A DNA stretch of 64,000 nucleotides from Candidatus Harrisonbacteria bacterium RIFCSPHIGHO2_02_FULL_40_20. Its GTDB lineage: Bacteria > Patescibacteriota > Minisyncoccia > UBA6257 > WO2-44-18. The notes beneath the pieces were generated by a model. That model had not been told where the DNA came from. It did not search any database and saw nothing but the letters and a program-made list of their open reading frames with translations. Position numbers and translations under genes: made by a program. Positions 2,480-63,462 of the stretch are shown in pieces. Each line of letters opens with the position of its first letter. Position 1 is the stretch's first letter. The stretch covers positions 3,157-67,156 of the forward strand of contig MHJF01000006.1 in NCBI GenBank assembly GCA_001818675.1. The letters are read 5' to 3'.

Positions 2480-3031
2480 ATGTTAGAAGGCGAAGATAAG
2501 CTAATAAAGCGAGCCCAAAAAGGTGAGGGGGATTGTTTTGGCGATTTATACGACCATTACTTGCCTCCGCTTTATAGATACATTCTTTTAAGGGTGAGCA
2601 GCAAACAAGAGGCTGAAGATTTAACTCACGAAGTGTTTGTCAGCGCTTGGGAAAATCTGAAGGGCTATCGCTTACGTGGATTTCCGTTTTCTAGCTGGTT
2701 ATATAATATTGCCAGGAATAAAGTGATTGATTATTACCGTACCCGCAAGATTAATGTGGATATTGATGAGGTTGATCCAGATTTATTTAAACTTGCATCT
2801 AGCGTGGAAAAAGAAATAGACTTCGCTTTGGATTTTAAAAAAGTTAAAACCGCAATGTCTAAATTAGGAGAAGAACAGCAAGATGTTTTGATAATGCGTT
2901 TTGTAGATGATCTATCCCATAGAGAAATTGCCGTGGCAATGGAAAAGACAGAGGGAGCAGTACGCTTAGTACAACACAGGGCGCTGCAATCATTAAGAGA
3001 AATTTTAGAACATGGAAGACCAAATAATTAA
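2480..3031 (+). CDS. ECF-type RNA polymerase sigma-70 family factor
   Basis: Region 2 (EDLTHEVFVSAWENL...YNIARNKVIDYYR) and region 4 (LSHREIAVAMEKTEGAVRLVQHRALQSLRE) motifs. Confidence 0.85.
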   Translation: MLEGEDKLIKRAQKGEGDCFGDLYDHYLPPLYRYILLRVSSKQEAEDLTHEVFVSAWENLKGYRLRGFPFSSWLYNIARNKVIDYYRTRKINVDIDEVDPDLFKLASSVEKEIDFALDFKKVKTAMSKLGEEQQDVLIMRFVDDLSHREIAVAMEKTEGAVRLVQHRALQSLREILEHGRPNN

Positions 3032-3443
3032 AATTTTACAGTCTGCTCATAAATTAGAGCCAGACCAAGCATTTAAGAACCGTTCTCGCGCGTTGATTTT
3101 GAATCTGCCCAAACCAAAAAAATCGATTTTACGTTTTGGTATTTTTGAAAGCTTGCAGTTCGGCGCTGCCATTGGTTTTGCCACCATTCTTTTATTTGTT
3201 TTGGCCGGTGGACTTACTTATTTTATAGCCAGAGTTTCGCCAACGTTATTGGCAAGTTTTGACGAAAAGGGTTTATTAGAAGAAGCTTCCGGATTAGATT
3301 TTAGAATTCAGCTTGGCGAAGCTAAATATTTTGATGATTCTGCTCAACAGATCGCTGCGGTTTTAGAAGAAATTTCTAAGCAAAATAAAAAAGATAAAAA
3401 TAGTAATTCCGAGGATATTAATCTGAATTCTTTTATATTATAA
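3012..3443 (+). CDS. putative anti-sigma factor (single-pass membrane protein)
   Basis: Overlaps the sigma factor stop by 20 nt; one TM helix; assignment from context only. Confidence 0.4.
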   Translation: MEDQIIKILQSAHKLEPDQAFKNRSRALILNLPKPKKSILRFGIFESLQFGAAIGFATILLFVLAGGLTYFIARVSPTLLASFDEKGLLEEASGLDFRIQLGEAKYFDDSAQQIAAVLEEISKQNKKDKNSNSEDINLNSFIL

Positions 3444-3445
3444 GT

Positions 3446-3563
3446 CCCGTTAGAGACGGGTCGCCAAAGGCGACCGTAACTCGGCCGTTTTAATAAAAAT
3501 CGACTTTTTATGATTAAAATTAAACAATATTGCAGAAATCATAGATTGGTTGTCTCTAGCGGG
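3446..3563 (+). mobile_element. 118-bp MITE-like element, copy 1 (terminal inverted repeats cccgttagagac / gtctctagcggg)
   Basis: Near-identical inverted copy at 31433-31550; ends 3 nt before an ATG. Confidence 0.6.
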
Positions 3564-3566
3564 ATA

Positions 3567-4346
3567 ATGTTTTTACTGGTTTTATTACCGGTTTTTTGGG
3601 TTCATCCCACGAATGCCCAATCCGAAGATTTAAAGACCGCTAAAGAAGCGGTTCAGCAAAGCTATGATAAATTAGTGGAAGTTCAGGGCGAGCAGACGTT
3701 AACTAAAGAAGAACAAGCTAAACAAGAGTTAGAAGCTTTAATTGCCGCTTTAAAAGAAGTTGTGCAATTTACCATTACTGAAACTGAAAGTTTAATTCAG
3801 CATTTATCGGCTATTAAGGGATTATCTGTAGAAACCGCCAAATTACAATTAGATTATTTAAAAGAATTAGACGAATTTTTAATTTATCAGCAAGAATTTT
3901 TGATTAAAATAACTCCTCAAGAAGAGGTTGGAGCCTTGACCTTAGTTGAGATTAAACAATTAGCTTTAGATTTTAAAAATTGGAGAGAAACGGTTTATGA
4001 TCCTGAAATTAAAAAGATAGTTAGTTTTATTATGGTATTTAAGGGTTCCGAGCTATTGAGTATAGCGACTAGCCGTTTTAATAAAATTGCTTTGGATTTG
4101 CGGCTATTCCAAAATTCAAAGTTAATTAAAGTAGATCTTTTGATGCCAGTATTACAGCAAGCCGGCGATTATTTGAAAGAGGCATCAAAATTAAATCAAG
4201 TAGCAATAAAATCTTTATTAGCTACTTCCACTGATCCAGTAGATACTAATAAATTAGTGGAGCGGGTGGTTGGGCTTATTAAATCTTCTTACGGCAAATT
4301 TTTAGAGATGAGTTCTTTGGTGAAGAAGATGCTTAATATCCAGTAA
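3567..4346 (+). CDS. secreted coiled-coil protein (start moved from 3510 to 3567)
   Basis: The ORF-track N-terminus lies inside the repeat element; Met at 3567 starts a signal peptide MFLLVLLPVFWVHPTNAQS. Confidence 0.5.
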   Translation: MFLLVLLPVFWVHPTNAQSEDLKTAKEAVQQSYDKLVEVQGEQTLTKEEQAKQELEALIAALKEVVQFTITETESLIQHLSAIKGLSVETAKLQLDYLKELDEFLIYQQEFLIKITPQEEVGALTLVEIKQLALDFKNWRETVYDPEIKKIVSFIMVFKGSELLSIATSRFNKIALDLRLFQNSKLIKVDLLMPVLQQAGDYLKEASKLNQVAIKSLLATSTDPVDTNKLVERVVGLIKSSYGKFLEMSSLVKKMLNIQ

Positions 4347-16347: not shown

Positions 16348-16393
16348 AAAACCCCCTCTTTTTACACATTCGTGTGAAAAAGAGGGGGTTTTT
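16348..16393. terminator. long bidirectional terminator hairpin (ccccctcttttt ... aaaaagaggggg); a second copy is at 57489-57536
   Basis: 12-bp GC-clamped stem with T-runs on both sides. Confidence 0.6.
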
Positions 16394-18704: not shown

Positions 18705-18776
18705 GCCCTCGTAATTCAATGGACAGAATAGCTCCGTCCTAAGGAGAAAATGACTGTTCGATTCAGTCCGAGGGCA
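18705..18776 (+). tRNA. tRNA-Arg (anticodon CCT)
   Basis: Acceptor GCCCTCG/CGAGGGC, anticodon loop GTCCTAA, T-loop TTCGATT. Confidence 0.75.
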
Positions 18777-18778
18777 AA

Positions 18779-18832
18779 GGCTAAATCTGCCAGCTGGCGG
18801 ATCGCCCGATTGCCAATAGCGGTTTAGGGAGG
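18779..18832 (+). promoter_or_regulatory. partial copy of the recurrent ggctaaatc...ccagctggcgg...gtttagggagg motif in the tRNA-Arg/tRNA-Ser spacer
   Basis: First 32 nt match the motif upstream of 40929 and 55413; 3' end overlaps the 5' end of tRNA-Ser. Confidence 0.5.
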
Positions 18833-18914
18833 GTTGGCAGAGTGGTTTAACGCGCCGCACTCGAAATGCGGTTGGGGAGAAATCCCCTCGGAGGTTCGAA
18901 TCCTCCACCCTCCG
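18828..18914 (+). tRNA. tRNA-Ser (anticodon CGA)
   Basis: Long variable arm; anticodon loop CTCGAAA; acceptor GGAGGGT/ACCCTCC. Confidence 0.8.
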
Positions 18915-22609: not shown

Positions 22610-22670
22610 CTCCCTAAATCAAAACGGGGTTTTGATCGGCTATAGCCCGATGGGCTCGCCCATTTAGGGG
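22610..22670 (-). promoter_or_regulatory. 5'-UTR structured motif, fbp copy (cccctaaatgggcgagcccatcgggctatagccgatcaaaaccccgttttgatttagggag)
   Basis: Minus-strand copy of the ctaaat...caaaacCYCgttttg...atttagggag motif, 6 nt upstream of the fbp ATG. Confidence 0.55.
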
Positions 22671-22793: not shown

Positions 22794-25394
22794 GTGATTA
22801 CAAAAGACATTTTAAGCCGGAGTTTTTGGGCGCTTCCGAAGCATGAAGTTTTAGATATCTTAGAAACTAGTTTTGACGGTTTAGTGGAAGAGGATGCTAA
22901 AGAACGGCAGGGGATTTTTGGAAAGAATATTTTATTAAAGAGGACGCGGACCGCCGCGCTTCAGATTTTTTTACGCCAATTTGAGAGTCCGCTTATCTTT
23001 TTGCTTTTGATCGCTGTTGCTATAACGGGATTTTTACAAGATTACAAGGACGCGGTTTTTATTGGCTTAGCGGTAGCCATTAATGTCGCTTTGGGATTTT
23101 ATCAAGAGAATAAAGCGGAATCGGTTATTGCCCATATTCAAAGCTATGTTCGAGAAAAAGCAAAGGTTTTTCGAAACAATCAAGAATTAGAAATAGATGC
23201 GGAGGAATTAACGCCAGGAGACATTGTGCATGTTACCCAAGGCGACCGAGTGCCTGCTGACTGCCGGTTGATTTATATCAATGATTTAATGGTAGATGAA
23301 TCAATTTTAACAGGGGAGTCTTTGCCTTCTGTTAAAACCACCGAGCCTTCTAGTTTTAAAGCGGTTCTAGGAGATCAGCGATCCATGATTTTTAAAGGCA
23401 CTTCTGTTGTGCAAGGTTTTGCTAACGTTGTTGTTTGCCGAACTGGATTAAATACAGAATTGGGTAAAATCGCTTCATTGGTAGCGGCGGCAGAAAAAGA
23501 AAAAACTCCTTTGCAGCTTGCTATTAGCCGTTTTGCCCTAAAAGCCAGTATTTTTTTAATATTTTTAACCACCGTAATTTTTTTCACAGGCATTGCTTTG
23601 GGCAAGTCAATGCTAGAAATGTTTTTAACTTCGGTAGCAATCGCTGTTGCCGCGGTGCCGGAAGGATTGCCGGTTGCGATGACGGTGATTTTAGCGATTG
23701 GCGTCCAGCGTTTAGCAGAAAGGCGTGGCGTAGTGAGAAAATTATTAGCGGCGGAAACTTTGGGGAGCACGTCTATAATTCTTACTGATAAAACCGGAAC
23801 GCTTACGGAAGCTAAAATGTCTCTGTCTTTAGTGGAGTGTTTTGCGTCTACTTGCGATCGGGATGATTTATTAAAATTCGCGCTTTTAAATAGCGATGTG
23901 GTGATTGAAAATCCTCGTGAACATCCGGAGAATTGGCGAATTATCGGGCGCCCCTTAGAAGCGGCGATGGTGAGTTCGGCGGCTGGTTATGGAGTATTAC
24001 TGCCGAAATTAAGAAAAGAAAATAAAATTATAGACTCCCTGCCTTTTAATTCTTCTAATAAATTCTCCGCTTCGTTATTAGAACATGCCGATTACCATCT
24101 TTTGACGATGTTTGGCGCTCCGGAGATATTGTTAAAATTTTCTGATTTGCCGGCAGAAGAGAAAAAACGCATTAATCATGAAATCAATAAGTTGGCTACT
24201 AGCGGCGAGCGAGTTTTAGCTATTGCCACAAAAAGATTTACTCCAGAAAGCGAAATCTTTTTGCGGGATAAAAAAACTTATAATGATATAAATTTTTTGG
24301 GCATTGTGGCTTTTCGCGATCCGGTCAGGCCACATGTTAGAGATGTTATTGAACGCGTTAAAGAAGCAGGCGTCAAAGTGGTTATTGTCACTGGAGATCA
24401 CCAAGGGACTGCAGAAGCTGTAGCAAGAGAGGTGGGTTTGGCGGCGCGGCCCGACGAAATCATCAATGGCGCTGAATTGGATGCATTAACTGAAGATGAA
24501 TTAAAAATGAAATTGCCGATTTTAAAAATCGTTTCTCGGGTAAGTCCGGAAGGCAAAGTTCGCATTGCTAAAGGCTATAAAGCTTTAGGTGAAACTGTGG
24601 CGATGACTGGTGATGGTCTAAACGACGCGGCGTCTCTAAAAGAAGCCGATATCGGAATTGCTATGGGATCGGGCGCTGATGTGGCGAAAGATGTTTCCGA
24701 CCTCGTTCTTTTAGATAATGATTTTTCTACGATTGTTACTGCTATTGAAGAGGGTCGAAGAATTTTAGAAAATATCCGGAAAGTGATTGTTTATTTAATG
24801 TCTTCGATTTTTGATGAACTAATTTTAATAGGCGCTGCTTTGGCTTTTGGAGTGGCTCTTCCTTTGAACGCGCTACAAATTTTATTTATCAACTTTGTTA
24901 CAGATAGTTTTCCGGCTATGGGATTAGCCTTTGAAGATCATATTGATTACTTAATGACAAAGCGCCGGAAAGCTAGTTTAAATTTATTTGATAAAGAAAT
25001 GAGATTGCTGACTTTGACGATTGGAATACCTACCAGCCTGATGCTGTTTGTAATTTATTGGGGCTTATTGAAATATGGATTAGACCCTGCTGAAGTTAAA
25101 ACTTTTATTTTTGCCGCTTTCGGAACTTATTCTTTGTTCCTGATTTTTTCTGTTCGGAGCTTGCGCAAGCCCATTTTTACTTATAATCCTTTTTCCAATT
25201 TTTATTTATTGGGCGCGGTATTTTTCAGCGCTGGCTTTATAGTTGCCTCTATCTATTGGATTCCGCTACAACAACTTTTGGGAAATGTTGCTTTATCGCC
25301 ATTGTGGTTAGTGGGAGTTGCTGGTGTGGGATTAATCAATATCATAGCGGTTGAGACGGGGAAATTTTTTATACGTAAAAAGGCAAATCTATAA
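22794..25394 (+). CDS. P-type cation-transporting ATPase (type II, Ca2+/Mg2+-like)
   Basis: DKTGTLT phosphorylation motif, TGDGLNDAASLKEADIGIAMG hinge, 10 TM helices. Confidence 0.9.
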   Translation: MITKDILSRSFWALPKHEVLDILETSFDGLVEEDAKERQGIFGKNILLKRTRTAALQIFLRQFESPLIFLLLIAVAITGFLQDYKDAVFIGLAVAINVALGFYQENKAESVIAHIQSYVREKAKVFRNNQELEIDAEELTPGDIVHVTQGDRVPADCRLIYINDLMVDESILTGESLPSVKTTEPSSFKAVLGDQRSMIFKGTSVVQGFANVVVCRTGLNTELGKIASLVAAAEKEKTPLQLAISRFALKASIFLIFLTTVIFFTGIALGKSMLEMFLTSVAIAVAAVPEGLPVAMTVILAIGVQRLAERRGVVRKLLAAETLGSTSIILTDKTGTLTEAKMSLSLVECFASTCDRDDLLKFALLNSDVVIENPREHPENWRIIGRPLEAAMVSSAAGYGVLLPKLRKENKIIDSLPFNSSNKFSASLLEHADYHLLTMFGAPEILLKFSDLPAEEKKRINHEINKLATSGERVLAIATKRFTPESEIFLRDKKTYNDINFLGIVAFRDPVRPHVRDVIERVKEAGVKVVIVTGDHQGTAEAVAREVGLAARPDEIINGAELDALTEDELKMKLPILKIVSRVSPEGKVRIAKGYKALGETVAMTGDGLNDAASLKEADIGIAMGSGADVAKDVSDLVLLDNDFSTIVTAIEEGRRILENIRKVIVYLMSSIFDELILIGAALAFGVALPLNALQILFINFVTDSFPAMGLAFEDHIDYLMTKRRKASLNLFDKEMRLLTLTIGIPTSLMLFVIYWGLLKYGLDPAEVKTFIFAAFGTYSLFLIFSVRSLRKPIFTYNPFSNFYLLGAVFFSAGFIVASIYWIPLQQLLGNVALSPLWLVGVAGVGLINIIAVETGKFFIRKKANL

Positions 25395-31401: not shown

Positions 31402-31432
31402 AAAATAAAAGTTGTATAATTAGTACATGAAT

Positions 31433-31550
31433 CCCGTTAGAGACAACCAATCCATGATTTCTGAAATATTATTTGATTTTAGATATAAAAAGTCGATTGC
31501 CGTTAAAACGGTTGAGTTACGGTCGCCTCTGGAGACCTGTCTCTAACGGG
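31433..31550 (-). mobile_element. 118-bp MITE-like element, copy 2 (inverted orientation relative to copy 1)
   Basis: Its reverse complement aligns with 3446-3563 over the full length; ends immediately before the pilC ATG. Confidence 0.6.
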
Positions 31551-32759
31551 ATGAAATTTCGATACAGCGCGAGGACAAAATTAGGAGAGCTTCAAGTCGG
31601 TTTTGTAGAGGCGGCTAGCCGAGAAGCAGCTTTTGGCCTTTTGAGCGGTCACGATCTTTTTATTTTGAAATTGGAAGCAGAGCTGGAGAAGCGGCCGTTC
31701 GCCGCATTGTTGGGTATTTTCCGCCGCGTGAGCAGAAAAGATTTAATGATTTTTACTCGGCAGTTCGCGACTTTATTGCAAGCCGAAGTAGTATTGGGGG
31801 ATTCTTTAAAAATCCTTCATACCCAAACTTCCAATAAAACTTTACAATCAGTTATTTTAGAAGTTTCCTCGGATATTGATGCTGGACTTTCTTTATCTCA
31901 AGCCCTGGAAAGGCATGGCGATATTTTTTCAGAATTCTATATTAATTTAATCCGTTCCGCGGAGGTCACTGGGCGTATGGATGAGTCTATGAGTTTTTTA
32001 GCCGACTTTTTAGAAAAGGATATGAATCTGGTGGCAAAAATTCGGAACGCTTTAATTTACCCGGCTTTTATTTTAGGTTTATTTTTTGTGGTGGTAATTA
32101 TTTTGGTAGTGGCGGTTTTCCCCCAATTGCGGCCGATTTTTGCAGATGCCCAAGTGGATTTGCCGTTAGTTACGAAGCTGCTTTTGGATGGCGGCGCTTT
32201 GCTTCTGGACTGGTGGTGGGCGATGGTTGTTATCTTTGGCGTTTGTATTTGGGTGATTATAGATTATTTTCGCACTAAAGAGGGAAGGGCTGTTTGGAAT
32301 CAGCTGATTATTGGTTTGCCTGTACTAGGCCAGGTTTTTAGAAAAATGTATATAGCGAGATTTGCTGAAGCGGCTAGAATTTTATTAAAAGGCGGTATTC
32401 CTATTGCTCAAGCCATAGAAATTAGCGGACATACTTTAGCCAATGTGGTTTATCGGGAAGTTTTGCAAGAAGCAGCGGAAGGAATCCGCAGAGGGGAATC
32501 GTTATCCCAGATTTTATCTAAATATTCTTCAGCTTTCCCGCCGTTAGTGAGTCAAATGGTTGCGGTTGGAGAAAGCACTGGGCGTTTAGAAGAAATGTTG
32601 GGGCGAATAGCGACTTTTTATATTCGAGAAGTGGATACGGTGGTAGATAATTTAGTAGAATTAATTCAGCCAGTGGTAATGGTGATAGTGGGTGTTTTGG
32701 TCGGATTGCTTTTTGCTTCAATTTTGATCCCGATTTATCAATTGGCGCAAGGGTTCTAA
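31551..32759 (+). CDS. pilC: type IV pilus inner-membrane platform protein PilC (GspF family)
   Basis: Two GspF repeats; start moved to MKFRYSARTK because the ORF-track N-terminus lies inside the repeat element. Confidence 0.85.
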   Translation: MKFRYSARTKLGELQVGFVEAASREAAFGLLSGHDLFILKLEAELEKRPFAALLGIFRRVSRKDLMIFTRQFATLLQAEVVLGDSLKILHTQTSNKTLQSVILEVSSDIDAGLSLSQALERHGDIFSEFYINLIRSAEVTGRMDESMSFLADFLEKDMNLVAKIRNALIYPAFILGLFFVVVIILVVAVFPQLRPIFADAQVDLPLVTKLLLDGGALLLDWWWAMVVIFGVCIWVIIDYFRTKEGRAVWNQLIIGLPVLGQVFRKMYIARFAEAARILLKGGIPIAQAIEISGHTLANVVYREVLQEAAEGIRRGESLSQILSKYSSAFPPLVSQMVAVGESTGRLEEMLGRIATFYIREVDTVVDNLVELIQPVVMVIVGVLVGLLFASILIPIYQLAQGF

Positions 32760-40783: not shown

Positions 40784-40866
40784 CAAAATTTTTCGATTCC
40801 TTCATAATTGGCAATTCTCAAATTGCGTGATAAAATTTTGACAGCGGATTTTTGAAAATTAAAAAA

Positions 40867-40924
40867 GGCTAAATCCGCCAGTTGGCGGATCGCCCGATCA
40901 AAACCTCGTTTTGATTTAGGGAGG
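40867..40924 (+). promoter_or_regulatory. 5'-UTR structured motif, copy upstream of the 40929 gene (ggctaaatccgccagttggcggatcgcccgatcaaaacctcgttttgatttagggagg)
   Basis: Matches 55349-55406 at nearly every position; ends 4 nt before the ATG and contains the Shine-Dalgarno sequence. Confidence 0.6.
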
Positions 40925-40928
40925 AAGC

Positions 40929-41894
40929 ATGAGCCGCTTTTGCCTATTATTTTTATTAACGCCATTTTTCACCTTGCTTTGTTCCTGTGTTCACTATCAG
41001 ATGGATAACCCCAGTTACGCGGGTCCAAAGCCGTTGCCTGATGAAATAGCCCAGCTATATTCCTATGAAAAACACTCGATTAAGTATATAGAAAAAATAG
41101 TAGAGGAAAGCCCGAGATATACCCTTAAAAGAGTTGAGTTTATTGCGCCAGTCAAAGTTGCGGCGATTAAAAAAACCAAGATTGAAATTGATTATTACGA
41201 TGTTAAAGAACCGAAAATCGCTCCGGTTATTTTGGTCTTGCCAATTTTAGATGGCAATAGCGCTATATCTAATTTTTACGCGAAATATTTTGCTAATAAT
41301 GGTTACGCCGTTTTAATAGTAAATCGCAACGCCACGATTTTGCAGGCAGAAAGCATTAAGGGAATTGAACTTGCCCTTAGGCAAAATGTTATAGACCTAA
41401 AACGGGTACTGGATTGGGTAGAAACTAAAAATGATTTGGATAAAAATAATATCGGGGTTTTTGGAATTAGTTTAGGCGCCATCAACAGTGCTCTGATTGC
41501 TGCGTTGGATAAACGGATTAAAGCAGCGGTTTTAGGATTAGCCGGGGGCGACTTGCCTTATATTTTAACTCATTCTCACGAAAAAACCGTTCAAGAAGGA
41601 ATCGCCCGAATTAAAGAAAAAAATCATTGGAACGACGATGTTTTTTATTGCGAACTCCGGTGCGCGATCCAAACTGATCCGATAAAATACGCCAAATATA
41701 TAGACGCGCGGAAAGTTTTAGTGGTGGTCGCATTATTGGACAACGTAATTCATACCAAAAAAGGGAAGGCGTTGATTGCGGCGATTGGTATGCCCGAACG
41801 GATCTATATCGTTAGCGGCCATTATACTGCTATTTTTTATATTTTTTATACACGAAGCAAGACTTTACAGTTCTTTAATGAACGTTTGCGATAG
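40929..41894 (+). CDS. alpha/beta-hydrolase fold esterase-like lipoprotein
   Basis: Signal peptide with Cys (FFTLLCSC); nucleophile elbow GISLG; dienelactone-hydrolase-like layout. Confidence 0.55.
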   Translation: MSRFCLLFLLTPFFTLLCSCVHYQMDNPSYAGPKPLPDEIAQLYSYEKHSIKYIEKIVEESPRYTLKRVEFIAPVKVAAIKKTKIEIDYYDVKEPKIAPVILVLPILDGNSAISNFYAKYFANNGYAVLIVNRNATILQAESIKGIELALRQNVIDLKRVLDWVETKNDLDKNNIGVFGISLGAINSALIAALDKRIKAAVLGLAGGDLPYILTHSHEKTVQEGIARIKEKNHWNDDVFYCELRCAIQTDPIKYAKYIDARKVLVVVALLDNVIHTKKGKALIAAIGMPERIYIVSGHYTAIFYIFYTRSKTLQFFNERLR

Positions 41895-49476: not shown

Positions 49477-49620
49477 ATGCCCGGTAGCGACAACTGCGAT
49501 AAGGGCAATTCGATGCGTCAATGAATTTAACTAAAACTATGTTTTTTCAAAGGTCATAATCAATAATAATGATTGCGAGACATTGTCTAAAGCAGCGCAA
49601 TCGCAATTGTAGCACCGGGT
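49477..49620 (+). mobile_element. 144-nt repeated element, copy A (closing inverted repeat cccggtagcgacaactgcgat / atcgcaattgtagcaccggg; contains a 15-codon mini-ORF MPGSDNCDKGNSMRQ)
   Basis: Near-identical copy at 61266-61410; ends exactly at the ATG of the 49621 gene. Confidence 0.55.
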
Positions 49621-52335
49621 ATGAGAAAAATTGTCACTTTAATAAGCGCGGGAGTGTTTCTTTTCTTTTCTGGAGCTTTAGCGCAGGTTTCCGCTCCTAC
49701 TAATTTTCCATCGCCTATAGATGAGCCGGAATTAGCCGCCGTGGAACCCATATCCGCGATTGAGGCCACCAGGCCGATTGTTTATCTTCAAGATTTTTCT
49801 CTTTCCGGATCGGAATTTAAACCGGGAGGAAGCATAGGTATTAGATTTACCGCGGTTAGCGGCAATGAAGTTGCTTTAAGCGACGTTCAATATTCCGTTG
49901 CCCTTTTAAAAAATGTGTTATTGTTTGACGAAAAAATTTTTGAGGAAAAACTTTTAATCTATCCAGAAGATAAAATCAGAAAGAGTATCCAATATAAATT
50001 GCCGGAAAAGCTGGCGGATGGAGAATATTTGATCGGCGTTTATTTAGTGAATGCGAAAGGAATGACTTATGGTTTTGCTGACCCTTTGCCTATTAAGATT
50101 TCCGGAGGCGGCGCGTTTGTGGAGCTAAGTAATCCCCAGATTATTGTTCGCGGCGCAACCTATCCCGCGGCTGCTGGAGTAACAGTTAAATCTAATGACA
50201 CGATAAGAGGCGAAGCAGCTTTCCATAATCTGTCTAATGAAACTATTTTAGTAATGCCACGCGTCAAAATTTTAAAACGAGGATTGAGCGATCAAATTCT
50301 TCAATCTTATGATGAACCGGCATTTTCTTTAGACGGCGATGACAGCGATATTTTATCTTTTGATTTTAGATATAAATATTCGGATCCGGAAGCGTTGGTT
50401 GCTGATATAGTTCTACTTGATAAAGAGGGCAATACAATTTCTAATCATGCTTTATTTAGATGGGTAACCGAGGGTATCGGAGGAGAAGTGGTGGCTATTC
50501 AAGCTCTGCCGCCTGACCCCACTTTTAAAACTTATAAAGCAGTTGTTTATTATTATGGGCCTGCTGATGCCCAAACTAAAGCCGGATCGGCGGAATTAGT
50601 AGTTACTTTAATTGATCAAGGCAAAGTTATCGGGCAAACAACAGAATCCATTAATCTTAATAGATTAGATAGTAGAACGGTTACGGTGATCGCCAATGCT
50701 TACGCGGAATCGCCCGAGATAAAAGCAGAAATAGTAAAAAGCGGGAAAGTTTTGGATAACTATTCTATTACTCAACCGCCGATTAAAGCCGTTTTTCCAG
50801 CCACTGCGGCATTATGGATTGTTGTTGCTAGCTTAGCAGCTGGCTTAATCGTGTTTTTAGTAAAAAAAATAGGTATGAGAAAATCACAAGTTATTTTACC
50901 TCTTTTGTTTGTCGCTGGATTTTTATTTTTAAACGTGGACATTGCGAAGGCCTCTATTGTTGAAGTTCGTAATGATTACGGTTTTGGTTATTCTTTGCAA
51001 GACCCAACGCATAATCAGACTGTGATAGCTGGCGATACCATCAGGTTTTCTGGCCAAATTTATCAAGAAGGATGTGGGAATGTTACTAATACTTCAGATA
51101 AAGATAAAATTAAATTTTATATTGACAATACGGAATTATCCGGTTATTTATCCCTAACAGAAGTTTTTTGTGGAGCGGGAAAATATTGTTTAAGTTTTAA
51201 TTATTCTTTTTCCGTACCGGCGGATTTAGCCGCGGGACCGCACAAAGCCGGATTTTTCTTTGCTGGTTATCATCCTTGGATTTGCGAAGCCGATCCTAAT
51301 AATCCTGTTTGCCAGAGGCCGTTAGAAGAGCAAGGATATTATTATTTAGATGTTTACGAGCATATTTTAGTGAGTAATCCGGGAACAGAGCAGCCAACTA
51401 ATCTTTCCAGTTTTTGTCCGGTTCCCGGAACTCGAGCGACGATTGCTTGGTTCCCGGTTAGCGGCGCGAAATTTTACGCTTTGAGAATTAATAATTTAGC
51501 TGATGATTGGACAGGGACTTGTTCATCTGCGGCCGGCGATTTTTGCCAGGATATTCAAGCTCCAGCCACTTCTTTTAGTTTTATTTCTCGCCTCAACAAT
51601 GCTTATCAATGGTGGGTTCATGCTTGTAATGATATTTCTTGCGGCAATGCGGCTTTAGGCCAAAATTTTATTTGTCGGGATCGTTTGCCCCAATGTTCAG
51701 ATTCTTTAGATAACGATGGCGACGGAAGAATAGATTATCCCAATGATCCGGGCTGTTCTTCGGCTGATGACGATGATGAAACTAATATCGTAAACCCGCC
51801 TCAATGTTCCGATGGCTTGGATAATGATGGCGATGAGCTTTCTGATTATCCCAATGATCCGGGCTGTTCTTCGGCTGATGACGATGATGAGCTTAATGAT
51901 GGAGGTAGCGGCGGAGGCGGCAATGGCGGTGGAAGTGGAGGAGGTAGCGGCGGAGGTGGAGAACAATTGCCCCAATGTTCAGATTCTTTAGATAACGATG
52001 GCGACGGTTTGCCGGATTTTCCAAATGACCCTAGCTGTTTTTCGGCAACCGACAATAATGAAAATGTTTCTTTCATCATTGAATTCAATTCTAGCCCAGC
52101 GTCTATTGGAATTGGAGGCGTCTCTAATCTTATTTGGTCTACTGTTGGTTTAAATTCTTGCTCTATTAATCAGGGCATTGGATCGGTTTTGGTTAATGGT
52201 TCACGCCCGGTGAGCCCCGCCCAGACTACAACTTATACCCTCAATTGTTTGCAGGGGCCAAATTCTAATAATCCGATTTCTCGACAAGCCACTGTGCAGG
52301 TTAGAAGTTCAAGTTTAGAAGAGGTTATCCCTTAG
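49621..52335 (+). CDS. large surface protein with three TSP3-like Ca-binding repeats (CSDSLDNDGDG...DYPNDPGCSSADDDDE), a Gly/Ser linker and an internal TM hairpin
   Basis: Signal peptide; internal DNA repeats of about 120 bp at 51688-52030. Confidence 0.55.
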   Translation: MRKIVTLISAGVFLFFSGALAQVSAPTNFPSPIDEPELAAVEPISAIEATRPIVYLQDFSLSGSEFKPGGSIGIRFTAVSGNEVALSDVQYSVALLKNVLLFDEKIFEEKLLIYPEDKIRKSIQYKLPEKLADGEYLIGVYLVNAKGMTYGFADPLPIKISGGGAFVELSNPQIIVRGATYPAAAGVTVKSNDTIRGEAAFHNLSNETILVMPRVKILKRGLSDQILQSYDEPAFSLDGDDSDILSFDFRYKYSDPEALVADIVLLDKEGNTISNHALFRWVTEGIGGEVVAIQALPPDPTFKTYKAVVYYYGPADAQTKAGSAELVVTLIDQGKVIGQTTESINLNRLDSRTVTVIANAYAESPEIKAEIVKSGKVLDNYSITQPPIKAVFPATAALWIVVASLAAGLIVFLVKKIGMRKSQVILPLLFVAGFLFLNVDIAKASIVEVRNDYGFGYSLQDPTHNQTVIAGDTIRFSGQIYQEGCGNVTNTSDKDKIKFYIDNTELSGYLSLTEVFCGAGKYCLSFNYSFSVPADLAAGPHKAGFFFAGYHPWICEADPNNPVCQRPLEEQGYYYLDVYEHILVSNPGTEQPTNLSSFCPVPGTRATIAWFPVSGAKFYALRINNLADDWTGTCSSAAGDFCQDIQAPATSFSFISRLNNAYQWWVHACNDISCGNAALGQNFICRDRLPQCSDSLDNDGDGRIDYPNDPGCSSADDDDETNIVNPPQCSDGLDNDGDELSDYPNDPGCSSADDDDELNDGGSGGGGNGGGSGGGSGGGGEQLPQCSDSLDNDGDGLPDFPNDPSCFSATDNNENVSFIIEFNSSPASIGIGGVSNLIWSTVGLNSCSINQGIGSVLVNGSRPVSPAQTTTYTLNCLQGPNSNNPISRQATVQVRSSSLEEVIP

Positions 52336-55225: not shown

Positions 55226-55348
55226 ATCTTAAATATTGTACAATTTTTAATTTTTAATTTCTAATTTTAGATTAAGAGGCCACTTGATTTTTTAAAAGTT
55301 TTCCGCGAAAATCATTTTAGTAGTTTTCCGCACCTTAATAAATGAAAA

Positions 55349-55406
55349 GGCTAAATCCGCCAACTGGCGGATCGCCCGATCAAAACCTCGTTTTGATTTA
55401 GGGAGG
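55349..55406 (+). promoter_or_regulatory. 5'-UTR structured motif, copy upstream of the 55413 gene
   Basis: ggctaaatccgccaactggcggatcgcccgatcaaaacctcgttttgatttagggagg, 6 nt before the ATG. Confidence 0.6.
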
Positions 55407-57488: not shown

Positions 57489-57536
57489 AGTTTACCCCCT
57501 TCTTTTACACATTTGTGTGAAAAGGAGGGGGCTTTT
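57489..57536. terminator. long terminator hairpin (cccccttctttt...aaaaggaggggg), second copy of the 16348 hairpin
   Basis: Same acacattYgtgtg loop and G/C-clamped 12-bp stem. Confidence 0.55.

Positions 57537-61265: not shown

Positions 61266-63462
<2,197 letters not shown>

Follow-up and report, generated by a model that had tools for sequence, protein, structure and literature searches.

A putative MITE-like inverted repeat at the start codons of genes in Candidatus Harrisonbacteria and other Patescibacteria

We analyzed a 64-kb stretch of DNA (hereafter, the window) from a Candidatus Harrisonbacteria population of the Rifle aquifer, a member of the Patescibacteria or Candidate Phyla Radiation (CPR), in which two inverted copies of a 118-bp repeat lie at the start codons of pilC and of a gene for a secreted coiled-coil protein. 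An earlier reading of the window from its letters alone (the sequence-only reading) had described positions 3446–3563 and the reverse complement of 31433–31550 as full-length copies of one element at ~85% identity, and a repeat search of the window bears this out: the arms 3445–3565 and 31431–31551 span 121 nt, are 86% complementary without a gap, and form the longest inverted pair of the 64 kb. When 3426–3583 (+) is compared with the reverse complement of 31413–31570, the match is uninterrupted and the similarity ends exactly at the element ends. Both copies are bounded by CCCGTTAGAGAC and GTCTCTAACGGG; the flanking T and A extend the terminal inverted repeat (TIR) from the 12 bp first recognized to 13 nt, and to 14 nt in copy 2 (AT/AT), where it is perfect, with one mismatch in copy 1. 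Exact matches to the 12-mer CCCGTTAGAGAC lie at 3446, 31433 and 31539(−), a match with a single mismatch lies at 3552(−), and at up to two mismatches the window holds seven matches against 2.1 expected, a number reached in 0 of 100 shuffles. A profile search with the window's own subfamily found no further or decayed copies in the 64 kb. Both strands of each copy fold far better than shuffled sequence (z about −5), which is to be expected of any long inverted repeat. The element measures 118–120 bp and has no coding capacity of its own, the sole open reading frames (ORFs) being one that reads in from upstream (uORF) and a 19-codon in-frame stretch.

The features at the pilC locus, which carries copy 2, are the following.

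31415..31420, + strand: TATAAT, 6 nt upstream of the original pilC ATG and outside the element
31427..31546, + strand: uORF from the original pilC ATG, 39 codons, MNPVRDNQSMISEILFDFRYKKSIAVKTVELRSPLETCL
31428..31431, + strand: upstream TGAA target duplication, relative to the empty sites of L169, L127, L128, L129 and L170
31432..31551, − strand: copy 2, in the canonical orientation with its hairpin end adjoining pilC; A31551, the final base of the element, supplies the A of the pilC ATG
31521..31537, + strand: gene-proximal subterminal hairpin, GGTCGCC-TCT-GGAGACC, with one mismatch
31551..32759, + strand: pilC (T2SSF), 402 aa, whose true start is the regenerated ATG at 31551
31552..31555, + strand: downstream TGAA target duplication, forming pilC codons 1–2

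The history of this site can be read against five relatives that lack the element, whose PilC proteins are 94% (L169), 92% (L127), 83% (L170), 81% (L128) and 67% (L129) identical to that of the window and whose pilT-pilC (or pilB-pilC) junctions are 25–53 nt long. The empty sites read TATAAT, 6 nt, ATGAAATT, and the window reads ATGAAT, the element, ATGAAATT. At higher resolution, the empty sequence is gttgTATAATtaaaatATGAAATTT in L169 and gcTATACTtaaagtATGAAATTC in L127, and the filled site of the window is gttgTATAATtagtacATGAAT, the element (CCCG...CGGG) and ATGAAATTT; with the element read as T-CCCG...CGGG-A, the insertion leaves a 4-bp TGAA duplication. The 12-mer of copy 2 ends at 31550 and the pilC ATG occupies 31551–31553, as the sequence-only reading had noted, and its suggestion that target-site duplications be sought is answered here by the TGAA on either side. 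The old and new ATG are 124 nt apart, which places copy 2 out of frame with pilC, and the uORF ends at a TAA (31544–31546) inside the right repeat, 4 nt ahead of the pilC ATG. Copy 2 thus represents an insertion into the start codon of pilC that is both recent and canonical.

Two details of the earlier account change at this locus. A TATAAT does lie just upstream of copy 2, at 31415–31420 rather than 31412–31417, and its distance to the ATG is 6–7 nt in L169, L127 and L128 (14 nt in L170). Because the spacing is the same in the three closest element-free relatives, we regard the box as the native leaderless-type −10 box of pilC and not a part of the element. It accordingly does not speak for a promoter borne by the element, and consensus promoter and terminator scans found neither an outward promoter nor a terminator in either copy. 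The automated ORF calls at 3510..4346 (278 aa) and 31473..32759 (428 aa) do begin inside the elements, 19 and 26 codons beyond the respective ATGs. All of the 120 PilC homologues listed are about 402 aa long and align from the ATG at 31551, and therefore the 26-residue extension of pilC is spurious; for the 19 residues at copy 1 the same is not established. Two public assemblies of this organism (L006 and L007) break in or just after copy 2, a common sign of a dispersed repeat. An invertible switch was considered and rejected, the orientation being the same in 10 assemblies at the pilC locus and in 4 at the copy-1 locus.

The second locus, at the coiled-coil gene, holds the following features.

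3441..3444, + strand: TAAG, a possible decayed left target duplication, with TAAT at 3565–3568 as its right partner
3445..3564, + strand: copy 1, with the hairpin end at its left, opposite to the orientation that the family usually takes towards the downstream gene
3445..3457, + strand: left TIR of copy 1, TCCCGTTAGAGAC
3459..3475, + strand: subterminal hairpin of copy 1, GGTCGCC-AAA-GGCGACC
3510..3566, + strand: in-frame ATG and 19 codons (MIKIKQYCRNHRLVVSSGI), almost wholly inside copy 1, a candidate replacement N-terminus
3552..3564, + strand: right TIR of copy 1, GTCTCTAGCGGGA, with one mismatch, G3559 (G for A), giving a U-G pair on the + strand
3567..4346, + strand: secreted coiled-coil protein gene; the ATG at 3567 corresponds to the ancestral Met7, MKKPFL having been lost

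Copy 1, whose sequence is unchanged in four further assemblies from this population, ends 3 nt ahead of the ATG at 3567, as had been reported, and its surroundings are more disturbed. Orthologues of the coiled-coil protein begin MKK(P/L)FLM(L)LLVLLPVF. Three element-free loci (L130, L131 and L132) read ...ATATTATGAAGAAAC(C/T)TTTTTTAATGCT..., with TTTTTAATGC after ATATTATGAAGAAAC, and in them the TGA of the upstream gene overlaps the native ATGAAG. The window reads ...ATATTATAAGT, the element, ATAATGTTTTT.... Compared with the empty sites, the native ATG has become ATA and the upstream stop has become TAA (3441–3443, the present stop of gene 3012–3443), and 15 nt (GAAGAAACCTTTTTT) are missing, and with them MKKPFL; the native ATG and six codons are gone. 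L130 is 99.9% identical downstream while its 45-nt upstream part is more divergent, and this short contig may be chimeric or a recombinant; our reading of the ancestral state draws also on L131, L132 and the protein alignment and does not hinge on L130. Copy 1 thus appears to have inserted in the start region of the coiled-coil gene, where the native start was lost and the site damaged. It may have entered at TAAT, a deletion following afterwards, or else at ATGAA, in which case both a deletion and substitutions followed. Because the native ATG and MKKPFL are gone, neither 3567 nor 3510 is the ancestral start of the gene. A start at 3567 gives a signal peptide without a charged n-region; a start at 3510 adds MIKIKQYCRNHRLVVSSGI, with four K/R residues, and would restore a K/R-rich n-region. 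Public gene calls for this gene differ: some records give it 278 aa, another 259 aa.

The two copies belong to a large family. We scanned one genome per species of the GTDB for pairs of exact TIRs 85–115 nt apart, and at least 116 loci match this two-TIR pattern, nearly all of them in Patescibacteria: carriers listed include many Parcubacteria lineages and, by name, Saccharibacteria, Wolfe-, Yanofsky-, Kaiser-, Nomura-, Jorgensen-, Taylor-, Lipton-, Harrison-, Levy- and Azambacteria, among others, and a few matching metagenome-assembled genomes (MAGs) are labelled Omnitrophota, Elusimicrobiota or Gammaproteobacteria. A further 32 metagenome loci hold the window's own subfamily, and viral contigs gave 0 matches to the two-TIR pattern. 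The family TIR is 13 nt long, (T/C)CCCGTTAGAGAC ... GTCTCTAACGGG(A/G), and is identical in more than 150 other copies; its invariant part is only the outer CCCGTTAGA (nine bases), and the layout is CCCGTTAGA-N-arm ... hairpin-CCT-arm-TCTAACGGG. The inner arm variants are complementary in both arms (GAGAC 150, GAGAT 10, GAAGT 6, GAAGC 4, GAAAC 2 and GAAAT 2). The interior of about 70 nt is AT-rich and unconserved, unalignable between genomes and mostly also within one genome, where interior similarity stays mostly at background (0.62 vs 0.59). In most genomes the family thus does not look like the product of recent bursts, within the limits set by exact-TIR ascertainment. That nine outer bases are invariant across the superphylum while the interiors are free to drift points to a protein partner that is itself probably conserved.

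One end of the element carries a subterminal hairpin, AC-GG(3–7 bp)-loop-(3–7 bp)CC-T, directly ahead of GTCTCTAACGGG-ATG. This hairpin lies 13–14 nt from the element end and is conserved in structure, not in sequence. Its minimum free energy is at or below −8 kcal/mol in 62/92 gene-proximal segments, compared with 5/92 distal and 11/92 shuffled segments. In an alignment pre-selected for folding, all seven stem pairs (7/7) show compensatory double changes, in 1–16 of 31 sequences each (8–16 of 31 at the five inner pairs).

Some copies have been rearranged. Internally deleted mini-versions of 27–48 bp are still flanked by TTCAT (L073 and L119), a partial tandem duplication of 226 nt occurs in L144, and in the tandem arrays of L022 (5473–5710), L044 (1157–1437) and L111 (3071–3304) the spacer is only the 6-mer ATTCAT or GTTGAC; these arrays reflect either re-insertion into the regenerated target or slippage. 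The densest case is L080 (JAUYLR010000003.1, 429–6504), where 7.2 kb hold five elements and four of these stand at the starts of consecutive genes on one strand. Their arm variants differ yet remain complementary (GAGAC, GAAGC and GAAGT), and a C..G copy has turned ATGAG into an upstream ATGAG and a downstream GTGAG start. The family may occupy a large share of the gene starts in some genomes. The downstream genes are unrelated housekeeping genes, among them those for S2, L9, MetRS, GluRS, RNase III, RNase J and PilC, and no functional bias was found among target genes (121 Pfam families in 91 proteins).

Statistics on type and duplication refer to the 116 non-redundant GTDB copies among the matches listed, 92 of which are of the T..A type and 21 of the C..G type. 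Of the T..A-type copies, 83/92 lie directly against the opening codon of an ORF that is 50 or more codons long, as do 6/21 C..G-type copies (15/21 are not at starts). Perfect 4-bp duplications flank 71/116 copies overall (60/92 T..A-type and 10/21 C..G-type), and perfect 3-bp duplications flank another 11/116 (8/92 and 3/21, respectively). The upstream flank has the consensus A-T-G-A-A-T, each position being shared by 63–86 of the 92 ORF-abutting copies. In these copies the in-frame open stretch upstream of the duplicated ATG has a median of 7 codons, and therefore these are real 5′ ends of genes and not sites in mid-gene. Orientation is about 95% fixed, CCT standing ahead of the gene-proximal repeat in 84–89 of the 92 copies. 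Duplications of the C..G type read, for example, TTGA, TCAA, TTTA or CAAG, and where such a copy is on a start the rebuilt codon is GTG, which supports a model of a 13-nt repeat and a 4-bp duplication. Those at the 32 metagenome loci of the window's subfamily (TTCA, TCCA, TTTCA, TGGG and TCAA) are site-specific and matched on both sides, and are therefore derived from the target and not from the element.

An insertion thus duplicates 4 bp of target (sometimes 3–5 bp), typically the TGAA of an ATGAA start, and the terminal A (or G) of the element joins the duplicated TG to rebuild ATG (or GTG), leaving ATGAA/GTGAA at the downstream junction. The original ATG stays upstream and reads into the element (ATG AAT CCC GTT AGA GAC). 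That both copies in the window end at start codons, as the sequence-only reading had observed, is no coincidence, because the duplication contains the start codon; this is the defining property of the family. In this large sample, the element is mobile, non-coding and bounded by TIRs and makes short target duplications; it is placed on start codons, keeps one orientation towards the gene and rebuilds the codon. The proposal that it is a MITE-like (miniature inverted-repeat transposable element) mobile unit rather than a conserved leader agrees with its presence at more than 116 other loci, with the flanking duplications, and with its absence from orthologous pilC leaders, and we consider it very likely that the two repeats represent a mobile element of the non-autonomous, MITE-like kind, whose very large family is found almost only in Patescibacteria.

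How a gene would tolerate such an insertion is suggested by the reading frame that the old ATG opens. This frame stays open to the right repeat in 22/75 copies, compared with 6/150 in the other two frames; 13 of the 22 stop at a TAA 7 nt before the new ATG and 9 at a TGA overlapping it. Among 21 copies with the old ATG in frame 0 there are no open in-frame fusions (0/21). Within the window's subfamily, every copy whose frame leads to the TIR stop keeps that frame open (7/7), although the peptides encoded on the way diverge, and other subfamily copies with an upstream start stop early, several after seven codons (MNPVRDN, then stop). The targeted starts have almost no Shine-Dalgarno-like motifs ahead of them, and a TANNNT box peaks 6–7 nt before the old ATG (15/74 copies). 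Ribosomes would, we infer, still initiate at the original start codon, and translation of the first 6–7 codons of the uORF would melt the 5′ arm of the terminal stem and free the 3′ arm together with the new ATG. In the 118-nt subfamily, read-through would end at the TAA of the right repeat, with 4 nt left to the ATG of the gene, and allow reinitiation; in another frame, termination at the TGA overlapping the ATG would lead to termination-reinitiation. The host gene would in this way stay expressed through a translational relay from the old ATG. Cleavage of the stem by RNase III, or internal transcription starts, are also possible.

Several observations weigh against the account of a MITE-like element with a relay. 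The duplication at copy 1 matches at only 3 of 4 positions (TAAG/TAAT), and the site needs a 15-nt loss and one or two substitutions. An autonomous copy or transposase with these TIRs was not found, there being no TIR pair 0.2–4 kb apart in about 1 Mb of flanking sequence. The uORF stops inside the element in 53/75 copies and the upstream ATG is lost in 17/92, and therefore a read-through relay is not the general mechanism; the TIR mismatches give G-U pairs on either strand, depending on the copy, and therefore nothing here shows the stem acting as RNA. The family was ascertained by exact TIRs in MAGs, which says nothing on copies per genome, decayed copies or the full taxonomic range, and the calls of ORFs and gene starts are crude, as is the census of ATGAA sites. 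In general, the conclusions carry the limits of MAG-derived data, of exact-repeat ascertainment and of crude gene calls.

The position at start codons may reflect true targeting, selective retention, or both. The first of these can be put in a stronger form, which we offer tentatively and would not back at even odds: the machinery recognizes the start site itself, for example the DNA that is melted at leaderless-type promoters, and the element is translationally transparent and could even be a module that the host maintains. A −10 box 6–7 nt ahead of the ATG, as at pilC, would mark the melted target, the terminal base would rebuild ATG or GTG, the old ATG would be kept to open a relay uORF by which the terminal stem is unwound, and the element would provide stops in two frames right at the new ATG. 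A host-maintained module could then set the translation or processing of many Patescibacteria genes; in L080, for instance, successive gene starts each have an element.

Filtering after insertion, with no targeting, is an alternative that we hold to be possible though rather doubtful. It supposes that the element inserts at A/T-rich (A)TGAA-like sites anywhere, that genic hits are lethal and intergenic copies are quickly deleted in streamlined genomes, and that copies lodged between a promoter or start region and a regenerated ATG accumulate because they need precise excision. The TGAA consensus of the duplications is in itself plain sequence preference; most C..G-type copies (TTGA, TCAA, TTTA and CAAG) are off starts (15/21), internally deleted mini-versions of 27–48 bp exist, and about 10% of the window's subfamily is inverted. 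In a crude census of the same loci, free ATGAA sites number 115 at ORF starts, 411 in intergenic and 2014 in genic sequence, which would put about 22% of copies at starts from sequence preference and loss of genic hits; the observed share, 90%, is far higher. Against filtering, the duplications always keep TG or ATG and vary elsewhere (TGGA, TGAG, TGCG and TGCA), and a second repeat family of the window, described below, duplicates TATG, a different register on the same codon; this argues that the start codon itself matters more than any one 4-mer. Retention alone also leaves unexplained the polarity of about 95%, the uORFs open in 22/75 copies against 4% by chance, and the occupied consecutive gene starts of L080.

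A different kind of mobilizer, a Y1/HUH tyrosine transposase that moves the element as single-stranded DNA in the manner of the IS200/IS605-derived PATE or of REPIN-RAYT systems, seems to us improbable. A vertically inherited host enzyme would recognize the covarying hairpin and the long terminal stem, and no DDE transposase would be involved. Such an enzyme would suit the structure-conserved hairpin 13–14 nt from one end, the strongly polar orientation, the failure to find an autonomous insertion sequence (IS) and the REPIN-like architecture, in which a spacer of about 90 nt separates two inverted arms, and its long residence in the host would fit an outer TIR kept across the superphylum with interiors that are unrelated even in one genome. 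The window itself encodes a RAYT-like Y1 protein (460–1173, −), which matches Pfam Y1_Tnp PF01797 at 7e-11 and the NCBIfam family REP_Tyr_transpos (REP-associated tyrosine transposase) at 5e-11, with a score below the cut-off. The gene is flanked by REP-like palindromes (ATCTATGGACATCCGATGTCCATAGAT) at 424–466 and 1198–1241, and a third copy lies inside the ORF (967–1004); the region as a whole (424–1241) adjoins a tRNA gene at 1240–1310. Homologues occur in the element loci L071, L038 and L061, each flanked by its own, different hairpins, with a marginal match at a contig edge in L112.

Members of IS200/IS605 and REPs, however, leave no target duplication, whereas 71/116 copies here have perfect, site-variable 4-bp ones; a local hairpin is present at only one end, and the arms are non-palindromic and lack the GTAG motif of REPs. 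The palindromes that flank the RAYT-like genes, such as ATCTATGGACATCCGATGTCCATAGAT, are the genes' own and unrelated to the element, and 4–5 RAYT matches in about 1 Mb are not clearly above chance. As the mobilizer, the gene at 460–1173 was set aside for its unrelated flanking hairpins and its occurrence at only three other loci, and it stands as a lead only. The search for TIR pairs in the fetched loci returned only chance-level pairs at two mismatches, and in the 32 subfamily metagenome loci there was no autonomous parent, only the partial tandem in L144. The element shows four of the five classical features of a MITE (small size without coding capacity, TIRs, short target duplications that vary from site to site, and empty orthologous sites, five for pilC and three for copy 1); the fifth, a cognate autonomous IS, was not found in about 1 Mb of flanks, the 32 subfamily loci or viral contigs.

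It is less likely still, and in our estimate very unlikely, that the element is a cassette of a site-specific (tyrosine or serine) recombinase, in which the joined ends would form a lox- or dif-like site with 13-nt arms and a 4–6-bp spacer (GTCTCTAACGGG-ATGAAT-CCCGTTAGAGAC) and crossover in the spacer would leave an apparent duplication. Exactly such a junction is found in the tandem arrays of L022, L044, L111 and L025; the flanking 6-mers are often near-palindromic and fully repeated (GTTGAC, GTCAAC, GTGAAC and ATGAAT), and there is a tendency for the base on the 5′ side of the duplication in the target to match the terminal base of the element. The targets, though, share about 5 nt and no arm sequences, a duplication length of 3–5 bp fits staggered cuts better than a fixed overlap region, and the order GTTAGA/TCTAAC is the reverse of that in integron attC R″/R′ sites. 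No recombinase gene is linked to the element, although no search was aimed at intI. Finally, a conserved cis-regulatory RNA leader or small RNA gene that is not mobile can be dismissed as highly improbable: both strands fold at z about −5, the hairpin covaries and the repeat lies directly upstream of coding sequences, but it is absent from the orthologous leaders of close relatives, the genes downstream are unrelated, the interior is unconserved, target duplications are present, and the two copies of the window lie in opposite senses with respect to their downstream genes. Only tRNAs reached the Rfam gathering score in the window, and the best match at E<10, FasX, scored 22 bits against a gathering score of 100.

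The window contains other repeats and start-region features. A second family of inverted repeats at start codons is present at 49480–49619 and 61269–61409 (both +), two copies of about 140 nt in direct orientation that are 82% identical. Their TIR is imperfect and about 20 nt long (CCCGGTAGCGACAACTGCGAT.../...ATCGCAATTGTAGCACCGGG), and its outer 12-mer agrees at 10/12 positions with the TIR of the 118-bp element. TATG direct repeats flank both copies (49476–79 and 49620–23; 61265–68 and 61410–13); the downstream TATG holds the ATG of the ORF 49621–52335 and of ligA (61411–63462), and the upstream ATG opens a 15-codon uORF. A 62-nt repeat with two hairpins (ATCCGCCAGTTGGCGGAT and ATCAAAACCTCGTTTTGAT) and a GGGAGG end occurs at 40863–40924 and 55345–55406, inverted at 22610–22639 and partially at 18775–18836, a few bases upstream of the gene starts at 40929, 55413 and 22603(−); it may be a shared leader, a ribosome-binding module or another small repeat family. 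A 43-nt G/C-capped palindrome of terminator-like shape (ACCCCCTCTTTTTACACATTCGTGTGAAAAAGAGGGGGTTTTT) stands at two gene ends (16351–16393 and 57494–57536). Many genes of this organism have no Shine-Dalgarno sequence, and several have a TATAAT 6–9 nt before the start codon, for example at 22794, 26137 and 36393 (4207, 7550 and 17857 in L001), which suggests that leaderless mRNAs are frequent in the Harrisonbacteria lineage.

The wider family makes the element more interesting than the two copies of the window alone could show. If the pattern holds in complete genomes, the start codon would be the niche of a mobile element, which could occupy essential genes (for example those for ribosomal proteins, aminoacyl-tRNA synthetases and the pilus machinery) and leave them functional. 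For CPR genomics there is a practical side, because such elements mislead gene callers, as in the false N-terminus of pilC and the 278 vs 259 aa of the copy-1 gene, and break assemblies. They would also offer a natural system for the study of translation start in Patescibacteria, since ahead of the targeted genes the Shine-Dalgarno sequence is near-absent and leaderless-type −10 spacing is recurrent.

A full-text search of a limited body of literature, which included the exact TIR strings, gave no description of the element, and we know of no described bacterial repeat that rebuilds a start codon with its own last base. Among known systems, integron attC sites (5′-RYYYAAC ... GTTRRRY-3′) stand in cassette arrays next to intI; we rejected this identity on the reversed order of the motifs (5′ GTTAGAG ... 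CTCTAAC 3′) and on the location of the elements inside conserved operons such as pilB-pilT-pilC. ERIC/IRU repeats are imperfect palindromes of about 120 nt, transcribed with their neighbours and with orientation-dependent effects on mRNA. The window element resembles them as an imperfect palindrome of about 120 nt, but ERIC repeats are intergenic, variable in position and without relation to start codons.

The PATEs of IS200/IS605 share with the element a subterminal hairpin, a strict polarity and a preferred target motif at one end (TTCAT on the hairpin strand). PATEs lack TIRs and duplications, bear a hairpin at each end and insert 3′ of a fixed tetra- or pentanucleotide, whereas the window element has TIRs, variable matched duplications and a hairpin at one end only. 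With REPIN/REP-RAYT systems it has in common two inverted arms around a spacer, a length of about 110–120 nt, the lack of an internal transposase and diverse within-genome populations, and the RAYT-like gene of the window is a further likeness. REPs, however, are palindromic with a GTAG head, cause no duplications, lie in extragenic sequence mostly 3′ of genes, and flank the RAYT gene with the same REPs; the arms of the window element are non-palindromic, its duplications are real, it is positioned at start codons, and the RAYT-like gene has unrelated hairpins.

The Correia elements of Neisseria (CREE/NEMIS) occur in many copies near genes, are co-transcribed, form long hairpins and are possible RNase III substrates. 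A length of about 100–150 bp, many copies close to genes, long hairpins, TIRs, a short target duplication and the absence of coding sequence link them to the window element. Their TIR is 26 bp long, with a TA duplication, −10/−35 boxes and an IHF site, and they stand at variable distance from genes in either orientation; the window element has a 13-nt TIR, a 4-bp duplication that includes the start codon (TGNN), a near-fixed orientation and no consensus promoter. In its effect on genes, the element may be likened to the Rickettsia palindromic elements (RPEs), which are also short, palindromic, mobile and tolerated in essential genes of small genomes, in both cases without destruction of the reading frame or of expression. 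RPEs are inserted in frame and translated, whereas the window element stays outside the protein and the start is rebuilt (0/21 frame-0 fusions). At copy 1 alone, the in-frame ATG at 3510 leaves an RPE-like translation possible.

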